From an uncultured cyanobacterium (GTDB lineage Bacteria; Cyanobacteriota; Cyanobacteriia; Cyanobacteriales; Nostocaceae): a stretch of 64,000 nt of DNA. The notes below the pieces were generated by a model. It had not been told where the DNA came from. It did no database searches and saw nothing but the letters and a program-made list of their open reading frames with translations. The stretch spans positions 1,280,001 through 1,344,000 of the forward strand of contig OY970166.1 in assembly GCA_963706595.1 (NCBI GenBank), in the 5' to 3' direction. Made by a program: the position numbers and the translations under genes. Below are positions 53,768 through 61,795 of the stretch, piece by piece; position 1 is the stretch's first letter; each line of letters begins with the position of its first letter.

Positions 53768-53890
53768 GAAGTTTTGGATCTCTAGAAGTTCTTTATACTT
53801 TTGTAACAAATCGTGAAGAATAGAGCAAGCGATCCCCACATTCATTTTGCTGATGGTGGGGTGAGTGATCGCTGATGATTGCTAGTTCAA

Positions 53891-53906
53891 TGTATTATAT
53901 ATTACA
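53891..53906. promoter_or_regulatory. Candidate NtcA site
   Basis: TGTA-TTATATAT-TACA in the divergent intergenic region; the AT-rich context lowers significance. Confidence 0.3.
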
Positions 53907-53942
53907 TTTTCCGATATTATAAACCCAAATTACCCGAAACCA

Positions 53943-53976
53943 AAGATCCCCGACTTCTTGAAGAAGTCGGGGATCT
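53943..53976. repeat. Perfect palindrome AGATCCCCGACTTCTT-G-AAGAAGTCGGGGATCT
   Basis: Directly visible inverted repeat. Confidence 0.75.
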
Positions 53977-54088
53977 GAGCCTCTCGCTAGGGAGTAAATC
54001 CGATAGGATTGCTATATTCAAGTGCAGATTTCAGAATTGAAGAGAGTGAAACTCAACCCTAAACCGCAAACGGTACGGAGGAACAACG

Positions 54089-54736
54089 GTGGTTACACTA
54101 CAACTGCGCCAAATTGATGTTCAACCAGGACAATGTTTGATATTACGCGAGATTAATTGGGCAGAATTTGAAGCAATTTTAGAAGAATTAGGAGAACATC
54201 GCGGTGCGCGAGTTGCTTACTATCAGGGAGTGTTAGAAATTCGGATGCCGTTGCCAGAACATGAAAAAGCTAAGATCCTAATTGGCGAATTTGTGAAAAT
54301 TTTGCTTGATGAATTAGAAATAGACTGGGAACCTTATGGTTCGACCACATTTAAGCGTCAAGAAATGGCAGCAGGTTTAGAACCAGATGATTGTTTTTAT
54401 ATTCAAAATGCAGCCCGAATGATCGGTAAAAATCGACTGAATTTATCAGTTGATCCGCCTCCAGATTTAGCAATTGAAATAGACGTAACCTCAAAGACTC
54501 AACTTTCAGCTTATGTGGCGTTGGGTGTTCCTGAACTTTGGTGTTATGCGGATAGTCAATTGCAGACTTTTCTGTTACGTGAAGGTGAGTATGTGCAGGT
54601 AGAAAACAGCCCCACGTTTGGACATTTGCCTGTAGTTGAGGGTATTTTGCAATTTTTGAAGTTGAGCGAGATAGAGGGTGCTAGTGCAGCGCGGCGAGCT
54701 TTTCGGCAGTGGCTGCGTTCTCTTTTAGCGGGATGA
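54089..54736 (+). CDS. Uma2 (DUF820) family endonuclease-fold protein
   Basis: GLEPDDCFYIQN, PPPDLAIEID, LGVPELW motifs. Confidence 0.92.
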   Translation: MVTLQLRQIDVQPGQCLILREINWAEFEAILEELGEHRGARVAYYQGVLEIRMPLPEHEKAKILIGEFVKILLDELEIDWEPYGSTTFKRQEMAAGLEPDDCFYIQNAARMIGKNRLNLSVDPPPDLAIEIDVTSKTQLSAYVALGVPELWCYADSQLQTFLLREGEYVQVENSPTFGHLPVVEGILQFLKLSEIEGASAARRAFRQWLRSLLAG

Positions 54737-54752
54737 GAGGTAGGTTTACTCA

Positions 54753-54999
54753 CTATTTACCTGTTAAGCCATCTTGCAAAATTGACTTGTTGTTTAGGGA
54801 CAAATCCGTTTCTGCTTCACTACAGCCAATAAAACCATTTTGTGTGAGCGAATCTAGAGGTTTTTGCTACTGAAGTTGCTGGTATTGCAAATTAATAGTA
54901 ATCCTAATGGCATCGGTAAATGAATGTCTGATGAGTCTGCTGTTGAATGTAACTGAGTTTGTAACCATCTTCCTAATCTAATCATGCATTGATATGCAT
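54753..54999 (-). pseudogene. Degraded CopG/RHH-type antitoxin gene
   Basis: My translation MHINA*LD*EDGYKLSYIQQQTHQT / frameshift / TDAIRITINLQYQQLQ*QKPLDSLTQNGFIGCSEAETDLSLNNKSIL, with three internal stops. Confidence 0.6.
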
Positions 55000-55693
55000 A
55001 ATTTTAGAAATTTGTCATCAGCTTATATGAAGATTTTAACATTTGATGTCAGAGGAGCAAATCCTTGTTATTCACAAATATATAGTCGTTCTCGTCTAAG
55101 TAGTTACTATAAGTTACGCATTGACAATAAATACGAAATATGTATGGCGCTAAAAAGCACATATTTCGTAGGGGTTTAGCATTGCTAAACCCCTACCACA
55201 CGGGTATATTTACTATCAACATGATCATTGTTAAAAGCCGGAAATTGGCTATTTTCGGTGACAGCATACCATGATTAATTTGTACAGTGCGTAAGTCCTA
55301 GTTACGTGTTCCCTGTGAGAAGCTTCTCTGGGCTACCATTGACATACAATCGTCGTCTGTATCTGGGCTGTTGGCTCACTACGGGAAGCCCGTCATTGCG
55401 AGGAGGAACGACGCAGCAATCGCAAAAACCACGGAATTATGCGATTACTTCGTTCCGCTATGGCTGCACTCGTAATGACAATTTAAAGGGTTTAGAAAGC
55501 TTGAAATCCTTGCATATAGGACTTGTGTGTACACCGCATCTCCCTTTGGGAGAAGGTGAGAAGAGTTAATTAACCAGAAAATTCTAGTTTTAAAGAGTAA
55601 TTAAATTAAAGTGACTGTAATTTCAAACTAAAAAACAGTTTTAGTAAGCCAACGCCGTACTCTGGCAATTTTAATTGGGAAAATTCAATTATA

Positions 55694-55795
55694 TATAATG
55701 CAAGTATAGGAAAGGTGCATCAAATATAATGCAACCATAGTAAAGGTGCATCAAACATAATGCAAATATAGGAAATTGCATCAAATATAATACAA
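55694..55795. repeat. About 3.3 tandem copies of a 30-31-bp unit (TATAATGCAAnnATAGnAAAGGTGCATCAAA)
   Basis: Units start at 55694, 55725, 55756 and 55786 (partial). Confidence 0.85.
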
Positions 55796-55956
55796 TTCTC
55801 ATCAGCTTAAAAAAATATCACCTAACAATATACTTTGCATATAAATAGCCGAAACCTTTGTCTGACAAGCAATACAGGCTATAAATTTTTTGAGTATAGT
55901 CATTTTATAGAGTTTTTTGCAAAAATATTTATATGAAGGAAATCTTTTTTATTTTC

Positions 55957-55985
55957 CTGTCAAAAAGAAATTTCAGTGATACAAT
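55957..55985 (+). promoter_or_regulatory. Predicted sigma70 promoter for the small ORF 56288-56491
   Basis: CTGTCA-17 bp-TACAAT with an extended TG. Confidence 0.5.
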
Positions 55986-56008
55986 GGTCAATGATAGTAA
56001 GAATTAAC

Positions 56009-56116
56009 GGCGTGGCTGATTTGAAGTATGAACACAATTTTTGATGATGTCAAAACCACTGTAAAGAAGTTCCATTAAACGTCTCTACTAAATTCATGCT
56101 TGGTTTCAGCAATGCC
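56009..56116. mobile_element. Second copy of the ~110-bp MITE with 8-bp TSD
   Basis: Homologous to 6623-6733; TSD GAATTAAC at 56001-56008 and 56117-56124. Confidence 0.85.
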
Positions 56117-56125
56117 GAATTAACG

Positions 56126-56295
56126 AAAAAGGGGTATAGGTTATTTACAACCTACCCCCTGTTCCGTAGACAATCAGACTCTAACTGATACTACGTGTTT
56201 TTTAATTCTTAAGTCAAAACTTCTATTACGTAGACAATCAGCTCTAACTGATACTACGTGTTTTTTAATTCTTAAGGAAAAAAAGTAATGCTACA
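56126..56295 (-). ncRNA. Predicted ~170-nt cis-antisense RNA covering the 5' UTR and start of the small ORF
   Basis: Minus-strand CTGACT-17-TAGAAT (56329-56301) and a GC hairpin followed by U5 on the minus strand (56126-56159). Confidence 0.45.
56165..56276 (+). repeat. Two 48-49-bp direct repeats, each a hairpin followed by T6
   Basis: CGTAGACAATCAG(A)CTCTAACTGATACTACGTGTTTTTTAATTCTTAAG at 56165 and 56229, with a 15-bp spacer. Confidence 0.9.
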
Positions 56296-56491
56296 AACCC
56301 ATTCTAGCGCAACAACGCCTAAGAGTCAGTCTTTTAAGCAGAGTGTGAGAGGACATCTAATGCCAGTTTTTTTTATTTTGGCATTAACGACAGTTAAGCT
56401 TGAGGTCGATACCCCAAGTTTAAAAGTGCGACTAAATCTTGTCCCACCGGAAGTAACTAGAACGTTAATTCAATTGATACAAGGTCAATAA
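56288..56491 (+). CDS. Small hypothetical protein with a hydrophobic core (candidate type I toxin)
   Basis: AAGG RBS, 67 aa, LMPVFFILALTTV segment, downstream hairpin at 56511-56535. Confidence 0.55.
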   Translation: MLQTHSSATTPKSQSFKQSVRGHLMPVFFILALTTVKLEVDTPSLKVRLNLVPPEVTRTLIQLIQGQ

Positions 56492-56547
56492 TTGTAAGTT
56501 AAAAAATAATGGGGTGTGGGTTACGTCCACACCCCAGGTCACACCAA

Positions 56548-56769
56548 TCATGAGGCTTTATAATAAATTGCAGGGCGGTATCTCGGTTCTGGTATTGGTT
56601 TACCTTCGATTTTGGCAGCTTCTAACCATACTGCTTTTGCTTGTAATACTTCATTAAGTGCTTCTTCTTCAGTCGAACCAAATGCCGAACAATATTTTAG
56701 ATCAGGAATATCAGCTATATAGCCGTTATCTTCTTCACTGTAGAAAATATTAATGTGATAGTGTTTCAT
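56548..56769 (-). CDS. hicB: HicB family antitoxin (short, without DNA-binding domain)
   Basis: YSEEDNGYIADIPDLKYCSAFGST.EEAL..PIPEP. Confidence 0.9.
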   Translation of the reverse strand: MKHYHINIFYSEEDNGYIADIPDLKYCSAFGSTEEEALNEVLQAKAVWLEAAKIEGKPIPEPRYRPAIYYKAS

Positions 56770-57023
56770 TATTCATCCTCCAAGGTGAGTGCGTATTCTT
56801 CAACTAAAATCATCAATTGACGGACTTGATACGGAACAGATTTGCCGTTTCGATTTTGGAGATTAACAAGCTCAGGGATATCAGGATGAGTAAAAATGTG
56901 ATGACTCCCATTAACTCGTGATAGAGTAAATCCAAAAGCTTCAACCAAAGCAACTAATTCATTAAAATGAATATTTTTAGAACCAGAAAGAACTTTTTCT
57001 AGTAATTTACGCTTTTTCGACAT
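56769..57023 (-). CDS. hicA: HicA family toxin
   Basis: FGF..RVNGSHHIFTHP..NLQ..PYQVRQ; TAATG overlap with hicB. Confidence 0.9.
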   Translation of the reverse strand: MSKKRKLLEKVLSGSKNIHFNELVALVEAFGFTLSRVNGSHHIFTHPDIPELVNLQNRNGKSVPYQVRQLMILVEEYALTLEDE

Positions 57024-57026
57024 TGA

Positions 57027-57290
57027 TTAATCCTGTGTGTGGCGTTCCTGGATGAGTTCATCTACCAAGTTTCTCTCTGGGGATTTATCTTTTAATAAAC
57101 CTCTTAACTTTTTAACTTGTTGTTTAAGGCTGACTAATTGGATCTTGCCACTATCTTGAAGTGTTAAAATTAAGCGATCGCCTGATTCTAAATTTAGTTT
57201 TTCTTGTACTTATTTAGGTAAAGTTAAACGTCCTTCCGGTTCAATATCAAGTGTAAATTGTTGAGGAATTGATGAATTAGCAATTGTCAT
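57027..57290 (-). pseudogene. AbrB/MazE/SpoVT-family antitoxin with one premature stop
   Basis: MTIANSSIPQQFTLDIEPEGRLTLPK*VQEKLNLESGDRLIL..ERNLVDELIQER; TAA at 57210-57212. Confidence 0.8.
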
Positions 57291-57368
57291 AGCTGAATCT
57301 TCCCTTGTGTTACACGTATTTATATTTTAGCAAAACTCTCAAAAATTCTTTCTCTGTACTCTAGTCTG

Positions 57369-58976
57369 CTATATATTTGCTGTATGCTTCAGAGGAATCT
57401 CAATCAAAAATTCTGTTCCTTTTCCAGGTTCAGAAACACACTCGATTTTGCCCCTATGCTTCTCTACAATAATTTGGTAACTAATAGATAAACCTAAACC
57501 AGTACCTTTCCCTACAGGCTTAGTAGTAAAGAACGGTTCAAACAACTTATTTTTAAATTTTTCTCTTATTCCTGTGCCGTTATCTTTAATACTAATAATT
57601 ACGTTCTCTGCATTTTTTAGTTGAGTATGAATAATAATTGAACTGGAGTGTTGTTTCATATCTTTATAAGCATTAATTTCCTGTTGGCGTAAAGCATCAA
57701 TAGCATTAATAAAAATATTCATAAATACCTGATTTAATCCTCCTGCATAACATTCAACAAGAGGCAAATTTTCATAATTTTTAATAACTACAATTTCCTG
57801 CTGTTTGTTCTGACCTTTAAGATTATCTTGCAAAATTAACAGCGTACTATCAATCCCTTCGTGAATATTCACTGGTTTCATTTCTGCTTCATCAAGACGC
57901 GAAAAATTCCGTAAACTTAAAACAATCTCACGGATACGTTCAGCGCCAATGGTCATTGAATCTAATATTTTTGGCAAATCATCAATAATAAAATCTAAAT
58001 CCATCTCCTCAATTAAAATATTTATTTCGGGATTGTAATCAGAATATTCTTGTTGATATGCGTTAATCAAAATTAATAATCTTTGAGTGTATTCCCTAAC
58101 GTGTATCAAGTTCCCATAAATGAAATTAACAGGATTATTAATTTCATGAGCAACACCAGCGACTAACTGACCAAGTGAAGACATCTTTTCAGTTTGAATC
58201 AGTTGAACTTGAGCTTGCTGCAAAAATTCCAGTGTTTGTTGTAATTGAATATTTTTATGGTTTAATTTTTTTGTTCTGGCCGCAACTTGTATTTCTAATA
58301 TGGAATTAGTTTCTTCTAAGGCAACTTGAGCATTTTTTTTAGCTTTTAAGTATTCTTGCAATAAACGTAATACTAAAAGCCACGCTGGAATAAGTACCAT
58401 TAAACTGATAGTAGAGACTAAAATAGCCCAAATCATTCTTTGGCGATACGCAGCAACTTTTTCTTGCAAACCAAGTGAAATATTACTGTTCCTTTGAGCA
58501 ACACCATCGGCATAAATTTGTTTCTGAGTTTCGTATTTACGGCTGGATAATAGTAGCTGTGCAGCCTGTTTTTGATTGCTATTAACTAAATTAAAAGATT
58601 CATATTCCATTGCAACTAACTGCTGATTAGCCACATCAATCTTTTGGGAATTCTCATCTTCATATCTTTCAGGAGCCAGTTTAATAGCTTCTTGAATCGC
58701 CAGATCAAGTTTTGGTTCAAATTGGCGATATCGTTTTTCCCACATAACATTCCCTGTCGCTGCATTCATTTTGGCAGACATGGTTAATACTTCATCAAAA
58801 TAAGTAATTTGATCACTGAGTTTTTGTAGTTTGAATTCCTGTTTATTCATACTATTGAAGTTATAATATGCTTGCCAGTTGAGCCAAACTTGAGGGAGAA
58901 ACAATAGTAATGTCAGCAATACTGTCACACTTACTAGCTGAGAAGGAGTAAATTTCAGCTTATAAAATAAATGCAT
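57369..58976 (-). CDS. Membrane sensor histidine kinase
   Basis: Two TM helices; EKMSSLGQLVAGVAHEINNP, NQVFMN, DNGTG, GKGTGLGLSIS. Confidence 0.93.
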   Translation of the reverse strand: MHLFYKLKFTPSQLVSVTVLLTLLLFLPQVWLNWQAYYNFNSMNKQEFKLQKLSDQITYFDEVLTMSAKMNAATGNVMWEKRYRQFEPKLDLAIQEAIKLAPERYEDENSQKIDVANQQLVAMEYESFNLVNSNQKQAAQLLLSSRKYETQKQIYADGVAQRNSNISLGLQEKVAAYRQRMIWAILVSTISLMVLIPAWLLVLRLLQEYLKAKKNAQVALEETNSILEIQVAARTKKLNHKNIQLQQTLEFLQQAQVQLIQTEKMSSLGQLVAGVAHEINNPVNFIYGNLIHVREYTQRLLILINAYQQEYSDYNPEINILIEEMDLDFIIDDLPKILDSMTIGAERIREIVLSLRNFSRLDEAEMKPVNIHEGIDSTLLILQDNLKGQNKQQEIVVIKNYENLPLVECYAGGLNQVFMNIFINAIDALRQQEINAYKDMKQHSSSIIIHTQLKNAENVIISIKDNGTGIREKFKNKLFEPFFTTKPVGKGTGLGLSISYQIIVEKHRGKIECVSEPGKGTEFLIEIPLKHTANI

Positions 58977-59323
58977 TTTCCTACCTTGATATATCGTATA
59001 TTTGGAGATAAAGCAATTTTTAAGACGGTAATAAACTGTTGATTTGTCAAAGCTTGGAAGCGACTGGGTTTATACAAGCTAAATACCATGCTACTACTCT
59101 AAGCGCAGCCAACCAGCACGGCTTTACAGGACTTTGATTTCTGCAAGCCGCACACTGGCGTTAGCCATAGTGAAACGAAGCATCAGACCGAAGCAGTCAC
59201 CTTTGCTTTAGCGAAACGCAAGGGTCTGAGGAATTTAACACGTTGTTACATAGTTTAGATGTATTTGTGCAAACTTACTGACAAGCTCATGACAAGTGTA
59301 ACATTTTTGTTTCTGAGTATGAA

Positions 59324-61795
59324 TTAAGTCAAAATCGCCCCACCCATTAACCGTTCATAGCGGTATTTCAACTCAGCTTTCATCAAAGCCCAACGTTCCA
59401 AAGTTGCATCCATCTCGATTACCTTCTCCGCAACTTGTCTGGCTAACAGCAAAATTTCCTCATCTTCCACCAAACTGGCTAAAGTAAAATCGGCTACACC
59501 AGATTGACGAGTTCCCAGCACTTCCCCAGGACCACGAAACCGCATATCCATTTCCGAGATAAAAAAGCCATCCTGGGATTGTTCCAAAACCTTCAGCCGT
59601 TGTTGAGCATCAGCACTCTTAGAACTACTCATCAATAAACAGTAAGATTGAGCCGCACCACGACCAACACGCCCACGTAATTGATGTAGTTGTGATAAGC
59701 CAAATCTTTCAGCATTTTCAATCAGCATCACTGTTGCATTGGGTACATCTACACCGACTTCTACCACCGTAGTAGAAACCAATATTTGCGTTTGATTATC
59801 GCGGAATTTGGTAATCGCTTCGTCCTTATCTGCGGAACTCATCCGACCATGCAGCAACCCTACTTGAAAGTCAGGGAAAATACTTTCTTGTAACTTCTGA
59901 TGCTCTTCTACGGCTGACCGCAAGTCCAATTTTTCTGATTCTTCCACTAGAGGTAAAACTACATAAACTTGCCTTCCTTGGGCAATTTCTCGGCGGATTA
60001 AGTCGTAAGCTTCGGTGCGTTGTTTACCTGTTAATAAAGTTGTTTGAATTTTTTGCCGTCCTGGTGGTAACTCATCAATCTGGCTAACATTCATATCCCC
60101 ATGTATTGTTAATGCCAATGTCCGAGGAATAGGTGTGGCGGTCATAGTTAATACATGGGGTTGGTCGCCTTTTTGCTGTAACAACGCCCTTTGTTTCACG
60201 CCAAAACGATGTTGTTCATCAATCACCACTAAGCCCAATTGCTGAAAGTTTACAGAGTCTTGAATTAAGGCGTGAGTTCCCACTAATAGGGGTAATTCAC
60301 CGGTTCCTAACTGAGAGTGAATTTCTCGCCGCTTGGCAACTTTGGTAGAACCTGTCAGTAATTCCACGGGTAAATGCAACAGGTTAAACCAACTCACTAA
60401 CTTGCGGTAATGCTGTTCTGCTAAAACTTCCGTGGGAGCCATTAACGCTGCTTGATATCCCGATTGAATGGCGGCGAGGATCGCAATTACCGCCACTACT
60501 GTTTTACCCGAACCCACATCGCCTTGTATCAGCCGATTCATCGGGGTGGATTTTTCTAAGTCGTTGAGAATATCGTTGAGGACTCGTTGCTGTGCGCCGG
60601 TGAGTTGAAAAGGCAGAATTTCGGAGAATTTTTCGACTAGCTGACCTTTGGGGGCGAGAATAGCGCTGGTTTGGATTTGGCGGGCTTGGTGCTGACGTTG
60701 TAATAAGCCCAGTTGCAGGTAAAAGAATTCATCAAAGACGAGGCGACGACGAGCAGCTTGCAGAGTCATGCTGTCATCTGGAAAATGGATGTTCGCGATC
60801 GCATCCTTCAATTCCATCAAATTATACTTTGTCCTTAACCCTTTCGGCAAAGGATCTTTGAGGTGAACCGTAGCTGGTAAAGCCGCCGTTATCGCCTGTC
60901 TCACCATAGTTGCCATCACACCCTCAGTCAGAGCATAAATTGGCACTACCCGACCAATCGTCAACGAATCAATGGCATCTCCTGGATGTGCTAATACCTC
61001 AAGTTCCGGGTTATCCAGCGTCAAACCATATTTACTTTCCTTCACCAACCCACAAGCCGCCAAAATACTCCCCACTGGGTAACGGCGTTTTAAACCTTCT
61101 TGCCAACCGCGACTAGCAAAACGCGCCCCCGCAGAAAAGCGCGTAATTTTAATTTCACCAGTATTATCTTTGAGAACTAATTCTAAAATCGATAATTTCT
61201 TATTTCTAGGGCTAGTAAAACAGTTACAACGCTTGACATTAGCAATAATTGTCACCGTTTCACCCCCCTGCAATTCCCCGATATTCACCTGACGCGCATA
61301 GTCAATATGATCACGGGGATAGTAGTAAAGTAAATCACGCACAGTCAGCAAATTCAGCGCCGCTAATTTATCCGCCTGACGAGGCCCTATTTCTGGTAAA
61401 TCGCTGAGTTTTTGGTCAATGTTTGGCGCTAACCTCCGACTCACTTCTGCCACAATGGGCGATTTCGGTTGAGACTTCTGACGTTGGTATATCTGGTTTT
61501 TCTCTGTGCTACTTTCTTTTGGTTCTTGCTGTAGTTGGTAGAGATACCTCCGAGTTTCAGCTATTAAGTGTTGTCTTTCTGACTCTTCCAGATCGGGATA
61601 GTTAGCAAATTTCGCCGCTAGTTCTTGCCAACGGCCACGTTCTACAGAGGGCAAAGCTGTGGGGAATTTCCCAAAAGTCAAGCAGAGAAATTCACTGAAG
61701 CGGTATTGTTTGCCCATCAAGTCTGTAAAGCCTTTGTCAGCTTCTATTGCCAAGGCTTTCTGCAATCTTACCCAATCTGGTGTGTCATTAGTCAT
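59324..61795 (-). CDS. recG: ATP-dependent DNA helicase RecG
   Basis: QGDVGSGKT, DEQHRFG, MTATPIPRTL, QLRGRVGRG motifs. Confidence 0.97.
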   Translation of the reverse strand: MTNDTPDWVRLQKALAIEADKGFTDLMGKQYRFSEFLCLTFGKFPTALPSVERGRWQELAAKFANYPDLEESERQHLIAETRRYLYQLQQEPKESSTEKNQIYQRQKSQPKSPIVAEVSRRLAPNIDQKLSDLPEIGPRQADKLAALNLLTVRDLLYYYPRDHIDYARQVNIGELQGGETVTIIANVKRCNCFTSPRNKKLSILELVLKDNTGEIKITRFSAGARFASRGWQEGLKRRYPVGSILAACGLVKESKYGLTLDNPELEVLAHPGDAIDSLTIGRVVPIYALTEGVMATMVRQAITAALPATVHLKDPLPKGLRTKYNLMELKDAIANIHFPDDSMTLQAARRRLVFDEFFYLQLGLLQRQHQARQIQTSAILAPKGQLVEKFSEILPFQLTGAQQRVLNDILNDLEKSTPMNRLIQGDVGSGKTVVAVIAILAAIQSGYQAALMAPTEVLAEQHYRKLVSWFNLLHLPVELLTGSTKVAKRREIHSQLGTGELPLLVGTHALIQDSVNFQQLGLVVIDEQHRFGVKQRALLQQKGDQPHVLTMTATPIPRTLALTIHGDMNVSQIDELPPGRQKIQTTLLTGKQRTEAYDLIRREIAQGRQVYVVLPLVEESEKLDLRSAVEEHQKLQESIFPDFQVGLLHGRMSSADKDEAITKFRDNQTQILVSTTVVEVGVDVPNATVMLIENAERFGLSQLHQLRGRVGRGAAQSYCLLMSSSKSADAQQRLKVLEQSQDGFFISEMDMRFRGPGEVLGTRQSGVADFTLASLVEDEEILLLARQVAEKVIEMDATLERWALMKAELKYRYERLMGGAILT

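Follow-up and report, generated by a model that had tools for sequence, protein, structure and literature searches.

A lineage-restricted cyanobacterial segment with a type I toxin-antitoxin-like layout, predicted overlapping short RNAs and a probably drifting small reading frame

Among described systems, the type I toxin-antitoxin pairs Hok/Sok, SymE/SymR and Ibs/Sib, as presented in the accessible text of PMC12390103 and PMC2887945, come closest in layout to the locus reported here. Like them, it has convergent promoter-like sites, a small open reading frame (ORF) with a hydrophobic run and, within a long and structured leader, an antisense RNA predicted to end at a terminator of its own. 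Unlike in these systems, as far as that text describes them, the ORF carries no sign of selection, encodes a borderline membrane segment, is present in a single copy and has no homologues; plus-strand terminator-like hairpins precede it, and its best ribosome site lies outside the predicted antisense RNA. In cyanobacteria, MsoT1/MsoA1 of Microcystis aeruginosa has been called the first type I candidate (accessible text of PMC12390103, 2025) and is, like our locus, a candidate by layout, with a small ORF and a predicted antisense promoter and terminator. In contrast to the ORF studied here, the same text describes MsoT1 as having two predicted membrane helices and as toxic in E. coli, an effect delayed by MsoA1 (PMC12390103). 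No named protein was among the matches of our homologue searches. Among the papers listed by the literature searches, no type I candidate appeared for heterocyst-forming cyanobacteria. Nor did these papers, for the most part openly accessible ones, include a description of the locus.

Another possible likeness is to plasmid control regions. The leaders of plasmids pT181 and pIP501 contain transcription attenuators controlled by antisense RNA, and repABC has ctRNAs. Our locus resembles them in a predicted short counter-transcript over terminator hairpins upstream of an ORF, and in direct repeats further upstream. It differs from them in that it has no Rep-like gene and no plasmid match, and in that an RNA bound to the 5' arm would open the terminator instead of forming it.

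In this work we analysed a window of 64,000 nucleotides from an uncultured filamentous cyanobacterium of the Nostocaceae (contig OY970166.1), to which all coordinates refer unless a locus is named. A preliminary description of positions 55957..56535 had proposed an undescribed type I toxin-antitoxin-like module, an interpretation that we find weakly supported. Motifs, a MITE, a 63-bp duplication, a restricted distribution and a pattern of substitutions were directly established (Table 1). Under the explanation that we tentatively prefer, at somewhat less than an even chance, the locus would be a cassette confined to one lineage and sited in a cargo hotspot; overlapping short RNAs are likely made from both strands, and the 67-codon ORF probably drifts instead of serving as a toxin.

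Table 1. Features of the locus and of its immediate neighbours
Feature	Position	Strand	Remarks
Broken ribbon-helix-helix antitoxin-like gene	54756-54999		Stops and frameshift
Four 31-bp direct repeats	55678..55800	.	Two with perfect TGCAT-N8-ATGCA palindrome; within lineage-restricted segment
Sense promoter-like site	55957..55985	+	CTGTCA-17-TACAAT with extended TG
MITE, 108 bp	56009..56116	.	Terminal inverted repeats; 8-bp target duplication; present in G001 too
H1, intrinsic-terminator-like hairpin	56126..56159	-	Called on minus strand only
Predicted 56-nt antisense RNA, P2 to H1	56126..56181	-	Putative
Predicted 170-nt antisense RNA, P1 to H1	56126..56295	-	Putative; would cover first ribosome site and 8 nt of ORF
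R1, first 63-bp unit copy: hairpin and T-run	56165..56203	+	Weak terminator-like
P2, second antisense promoter-like site	56188..56217	-	TTGACT-18-TAGTAT
R2, second 63-bp unit copy: hairpin and T-run	56229..56266	+	Terminator-like
Orphan ORF, 67 codons (43 from in-frame ATG 56360)	56288..56491	+	Intact frame in all alleles found
P1, antisense promoter-like site	56301..56329	-	CTGACT-17-TAGAAT
Second Shine-Dalgarno site and in-frame ATG (56360)	56347..56386	+	ATG within 9-bp stem
GC-rich hairpin with minus-strand T-run	56510..56536	-	Part of segment; faces hicB end
hicA-hicB, intact type II pair	56548..57023	-	Neighbour, not part of cassette
AbrB/MazE-like antitoxin pseudogene	57027..57290	-	Stop at codon 27; neighbour

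Distribution of the segment and inserted elements

The segment is about 1 kb long (55553-56545) and was found whole only in the genome of the window (G000) and in one relative (G001), i.e. in 2 of 11 genomes of the genus; both of its halves were found in 2 of the 389 genomes of the family. A DNA search of the family, scoring two candidates per genome, gave matches at E <=0.05 in 77 of 389 genomes, of which just 2 were full length, and none of the 28 weak loci inspected extends. Relatives with hicAB but without the segment align only from 56546. The allele of G001 diverges from that of G000 by about 12%. Since the segment was found in just one further genome, the check named in the preliminary description, co-conservation of the antisense -10 and -35 boxes and terminator across Nostocales, had only G001 to draw on.

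Two samples of the phylum gave 2 matches in 221 (the locus itself and a 32-nt match) and 1 in 221. A covariance model of the 63-bp unit matched in 2 of 121 genomes, with only a third match of 22.8 bits in the own genome. A gapped hairpin pattern, scanned in 185,579 genomes, hit three loci, among them a cyanobacterial record (L083) that contains both copies and was left out of the allele count; the two proteobacterial loci, one of which was viewed, were taken as chance matches. Pattern scans of metagenomes gave 0 and 0 matches of 113, and those of viruses 0 and 31, all 31 being generic ribosome-site-plus-start matches without extension. There was no meaningful match in 72,556 plasmids and 50,697 phages, each set giving one short weak match. 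Eight public DNA runs hold the segment in part, and none is recorded as RNA, which says nothing on expression. Four runs were compared, three of which cover the ORF (X1, X2 and X3); X1 may be the run from which the window itself derives. A transcriptome of Nodularia in the literature (PMC3610870) was set aside, its accessible text giving no link to a genome with the segment.

The preliminary description had assigned to the ORF a leader of about 300 bp. The span is correct, but part of the supposed 5' untranslated region is filled by an element that had been missed, namely a MITE, whose insertion accounts for 108 of the approximately 300 nt from the sense promoter to the ORF. The element is a MITE by its terminal inverted repeats, its target-site duplication (56001-56008 and 56117-56124), its many dispersed copies and its lack of a transposase. 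Copies occupy 30 loci of its own genome (29 matches, including itself, in the initial search), and matches were found in 10 of 10 genomes of the genus. It shares inverted repeats, target duplication and dispersed copies with the prokaryotic MITEs described in the accessible text of PMC11602168 and PMC3184786, and nothing about it is unusual. When the MITE is taken out, the sense start comes to lie directly before H1. TTGACA-17-CATACT (10/12; 56025-56053, minus strand) ranks first among the promoter-like matches in the region; it lies inside the MITE, points leftward out of the element and may recur in other copies. Two further insertions in this part of the window are missing from G001 (55105-55300 and 55350-55535), one with 45 matches in the genome, 23 of them near full length, and the other with 3.

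The left half of the segment has a GC content of 27% and contains the 31-bp direct repeats, which hold 2 of the 4 TGCAT-N8-ATGCA palindromes of the genome. The repeat periods of 31 and 63 bp amount to about 3 and 6 helical turns, and the 31-bp repeats possibly form a protein-binding array. A pattern search found no motif of the NtcA, LexA or DIF1 type within 55501-56600.

Promoter-like sites, hairpins and predicted RNAs

The sense promoter-like site and the convergent minus-strand one, P1, are both at the positions given in the preliminary description, and a second antisense site, P2, had been overlooked. In G001, the -35 box of P1 is unchanged and its -10 box reads TACAAT instead of TAGAAT, with the key bases kept; P2 is identical, divergence beginning just beyond its -35 box. 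The sense -35 box is lost in G001, and a TAnAAT box stays at about the same distance from the MITE (TACAAT at -29 in G000, TATAAT at -26 in G001; probability by chance about 0.07). The flank around it has changes at 79 of 208 positions between the two genomes.

Such sites are at chance rate in this region: between 55000 and 57500, 8 promoter-like sites were observed versus 8.7 +/- 3.4 in shuffled sequences, and 2 terminator-like sites versus 1.8 +/- 1.4. The complete layout was then counted in the genome, using thresholds taken from this locus, over 1246 small ATG ORFs in 527 intergenic blocks. As many as 129 of these ORFs were as hydrophobic, 7 also had sense and start-overlapping antisense promoter-like sites, and 2 had a terminator in addition; each of two shuffles gave 0. 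The second of the full matches is an alternative frame inside another, broken gene, which we take to be PIN-like. In real intergenic DNA a terminator-like site follows a promoter-like site at 50-250 nt in 70 of 1223 cases, and from this density about 0.4 full layouts (7 x 70/1223) are expected per genome. The layout is uncommon but not decisive.

The hairpin at 56131-56159 (H1) does carry its T-run on the minus strand only, as reported before, with a minus-strand terminator call at 56126. It differs at 0 of 43 positions in G001, and 49 of 540 background windows are equally unchanged. The tandem leader hairpins are also present; they are, however, the two copies of a 63-bp duplication with plus-strand T-runs and thus possible stops before the ORF. 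R2 is called as a terminator at 56265 under a -10 kcal/mol rule, and R1 at 56202 only under a -7 kcal/mol rule; these calls and that of H1 face each other. Across the four copies of the R hairpins in G000 and G001, pairing holds in 39 of 40 cells, and one pair (in R2 of G001) is altered on both sides. This covariation lacks significance, 108 of 500 shuffles reaching the same level. As for the hairpin 3' of the ORF, it exists at 56510-56536, but since its T-run is on the minus strand it does not resemble an intrinsic terminator of the ORF.

Within each genome, both 63-bp copies (56165-56282; L080:3116-3240) share a private base in their T-run, T in G000 and G in G001, which suggests gene conversion between the copies. 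A repeat element of another genus (L045, L050 and L058, in three genomes) has 20-27 nt in common with the 63-bp unit, in the unit's 3' arm and tail; this may or may not reflect kinship, as about 0.5 such matches would be expected by chance on a rough estimate. Interpretations of the repeats as CRISPR-like or as a type III antitoxin were rejected, as there are two copies only, a 15-nt linker and no Cas or ToxN-size ORF. Rfam gave no match near a gathering score at the locus.

The conservation of the core is unremarkable within its intergenic background. A near-invariant stretch of 87 nt has a P of 0.001 against a 10% binomial background, but 16 of 230 real intergenic 87-nt windows are equally conserved between G000 and G001; likewise 9 of 18 intergenic stretches of 400 nt are as conserved between these genomes.

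The antisense RNA of about 170 nt that had been thought to cover the ribosome site and start codon is plausible from its promoter-like and terminator-like ends. It would indeed cover the first site (ATG 56288), but not the stronger one of ATG 56360, which pairs with the 16S tail at -7.9 kcal/mol versus -5.1 kcal/mol for the former. Structure prediction leaves little of either ribosome site unpaired, with a pairing probability of 0.99-1.0 for ATG 56360, and the T-rich loop of the 9-bp stem around this ATG supplies the Val-Phe-Phe-Ile-Leu codons at the centre of the hydrophobic stretch. The 170-nt RNA has a folding z-score of -3.9, which was not counted in its favour, because in this fold the two repeat copies pair with one another. 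The 5' end of the shorter predicted RNA (56 nt) is the complement of the 5' arm in both R1 and R2, and its duplexes with them would have -35.8 and -26.1 kcal/mol versus -8.8 and -11.7 kcal/mol for the hairpin folds. Taken jointly, these RNA signals, each of them weak, suggest that transcription of short RNAs at the locus is somewhat more probable than its absence.

The 67-codon reading frame

The ORF itself stood as it had been described, and its hydrophobic stretch proved short, with a run of about 12 residues. The best 19-residue Kyte-Doolittle mean is 1.45 in G000 and 1.64 in G001, the usual membrane cut-off being about 1.6. The 10-of-15 hydrophobic rule is passed (11 and 10 of 15), a rule that the accessible text of PMC2887945 uses only below 50 aa; a size of 67 or 43 aa agrees with the <=70-aa rule of the same text.

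Between G000 and G001, 18 of the 67 codons differ, with 17.5 non-silent versus 2.5 silent changes. This corresponds to a dN/dS of 2.3 (1.6 for the 43-codon form), from one allele pair with 20 changes, and three neighbouring genes of the same genome pair have 0.22, 0.07 and 0.18. The split of changes has a probability of 3e-5 under a dN/dS of 0.2, of 0.006 under 0.4 and of 0.26 under 1, and the substitutions are not distinguishable from neutrality (Fisher p 0.17). The ORF is without sign of purifying selection. Its codon score falls at the 5th percentile of 600 pieces of real genes and is exceeded by 43% of 742 intergenic small ORFs; acquired genes can also give low codon scores. Start, stop and frame survive in G001 after 20 changes, an outcome with a random P of 0.03-0.19 according to the indel rate assumed. 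All 4 protein alleles keep the frame, and runs X1, X2 and X3 have no indel within the ORF among the differences listed (40 of 98). Codons 8-36 show a single conservative change between G000 and G001, and given this stretch part of the predicted protein may be under selection.

An AlphaFold model of low confidence (pLDDT 59, pTM 0.28) suggests a helix at residues 17-34, strands at 36-42 and 45-51 and a helix at 54-65. In agreement with the earlier remark that the protein belongs to no recognisable toxin family, it has no match in Pfam, PHROGs or NCBIfam. In a set of 5.8 billion proteins, both of two candidates matched and both were alleles of the ORF itself, and none of 218 candidates was a longer protein containing it. 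The best score in the ESM Atlas was 0.80, without a usable match, and fold searches with the low-confidence model gave nothing at E <=0.001 (best Z 3.8). A phmmer search of 1.84 billion representatives returned 4 matches, i.e. the ORF itself and three long proteins with 7-9 short matched stretches each; all three were rejected, and the one examined (P0003) is repetitive. Using tblastn in the family, 3 of 389 genomes matched, and the third match was rejected for its three stops and its E value of 0.0086.

Explanations of the locus and its setting in a cargo hotspot

According to the cassette reading that we prefer, a plus-strand RNA would start near 55992 and mostly stop at R1 or R2, with a length of about 96 nt before the arrival of the MITE and of 210-275 nt now. 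Minus-strand RNAs of 56 nt from P2 and of 170 nt from P1, both ending at H1, could pair with it, leading either to decay of the duplex or to opening of the R1 and R2 hairpins and altered read-through. The ORF would be reached only via read-through past R1 and R2, and may be the decaying remnant of a gene that the leader formerly controlled. On this reading the locus would be one more strain-level overlapping small-RNA pair, and would matter little. It may instead be an inert intergenic relic, a patchwork made by inserted repeats and a duplication within the locus, together with hairpins that act as insulators. The promoter-like sites and the ORF would then have arisen by chance in AT-rich DNA, and the two hairpins on the minus strand would do no more than halt read-through out of hicAB. 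We consider this somewhat unlikely. Promoter and terminator matches at chance rate, an expectation of about 0.4 layouts per genome together with one clear false positive, a level of conservation typical of intergenic DNA, the presence of three repeat insertions and of two pseudogenes inside 2.5 kb, and the failure to find the segment in 387 of 389 family genomes all fit a relic; AT-rich, repeat-laden cyanobacterial DNA easily gives a type I-like layout by chance. The three promoter-like boxes and four hairpins, however, all persist in an allele with about 12% divergence, and the segment outlasted the deletion of hicAB in G001, X2 and X3. A different origin, as the remnant of a plasmid or mobile-element control region with a 31-bp binding array, an AT-rich stretch and an antisense-controlled attenuator leader, whose main gene was lost, is suggested by the helical spacing of the repeats, the low GC content of the left half and the patchy occurrence at a cargo hotspot. 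It appears very improbable, there being no meaningful plasmid or phage match, no replication gene nearby and no longer protein that the ORF matches.

Two other explanations give the ORF a function. If it were a fast-evolving membrane toxin, the 170-nt RNA would block its first ribosome site in the manner of a type I module. This reading can point to the position of the sense start, which without the MITE immediately precedes the antisense terminator, to the keeping of P1 and H1 in G001, to the frame intact in four protein alleles, to the predicted pairing of both ribosome sites and to a hotspot that gathers toxin-antitoxin genes. In addition, with at most 70 aa and 11 of 15 hydrophobic residues the ORF passes the short-protein rule of Fozo et al. 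as given in the accessible text. The toxin half of the proposal nevertheless found no support. The ORF has a dN/dS of 2.3 or 1.6 according to the start, no sign of purifying selection, intergenic-like codons and a membrane segment that is borderline at best (about 12 residues; Kyte-Doolittle mean 1.45-1.64). It is a single copy without homologues, its stronger start lies outside the antisense RNA, and two plus-strand terminator-like hairpins precede it, with no hairpin with a plus-strand T-run after it. The next gene is 57 nt away versus >250 nt in Fozo et al., whose upstream distance of >400 nt is present; this gene-distance rule was dropped in PMC12390103 and carries little weight (accessible text of both). 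In the Microcystis precedent, all candidates put to the test had a predicted membrane helix, and only 2 of 6 slowed growth (PMC12390103, accessible text). In layout the locus looks like 5'-overlapping type I systems, but since its ORF does not pass as a conserved protein and has no match to any named family, we have not classed it with them. We judge the type I reading unlikely, and give as little credence to its fuller form, in which tandem attenuators before the toxin ORF would be opened by the 56-nt RNA while the 170-nt RNA blocks the ribosome site, an undescribed double control. If true, the toxin reading would give the locus more importance, and a homologue-less toxin under terminators and two antisense RNAs, here in a heterocyst-forming cyanobacterium, would constitute a new family. 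The ORF could also encode a young non-toxic small protein (helix, beta-hairpin, helix), its expression being set by antisense-controlled read-through at R1 and R2. Frame retention (P = 0.03-0.19), the modelled fold and the near-invariance of codons 8-36 speak for such a protein, and the low confidence of the model, the neutral-like substitutions and the codon use speak against it; we regard it as quite unlikely.

The neighbourhood had been described as hicAB and two antitoxin pseudogenes abutting the locus. The hicAB pair does abut, with hicB 57 nt from the ORF stop, and both relics exist; they do not abut, the left one ending about 950 nt away. In Pfam, hicAB matches PF07927 above the cut-off and PF15919 (E 4.7e-5) below it, and the dN/dS of hicA and hicB versus G008 is 0.10 and 0.09. 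The AbrB/MazE-like pseudogene has an intact orthologue in L071 that matches PF04014, and an intact version of the ribbon-helix-helix gene occurs beside a PIN-like gene at the same site in G002. The hotspot extends over 53845-59324, from an LmeA-like gene to the 3' end of what we take to be recG, and holds a different cargo in each relative examined (loci L071-L082), comprising hicAB, AbrB-like/PIN pairs, long unrelated genes and, presumably, a histidine kinase and transposases. Most of hicAB has been lost in G001, X2 and X3, and the segment was kept. An 11-bp direct repeat occurs in hicB (56605-56615) and hicA (56849-56859); G001 and G009 are without the intervening DNA, and X2 and X3 end there too. 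Diverged second copies of the last 60-76 bases of the presumed recG, 80-85% identical, lie within the cargo at L075:3974-4035 and L080:4061-4136, direct in G006 and inverted in G001, where the copy is beside a PIN gene facing its AbrB-like partner. These extra copies suggest integration or inversion at the recG end.
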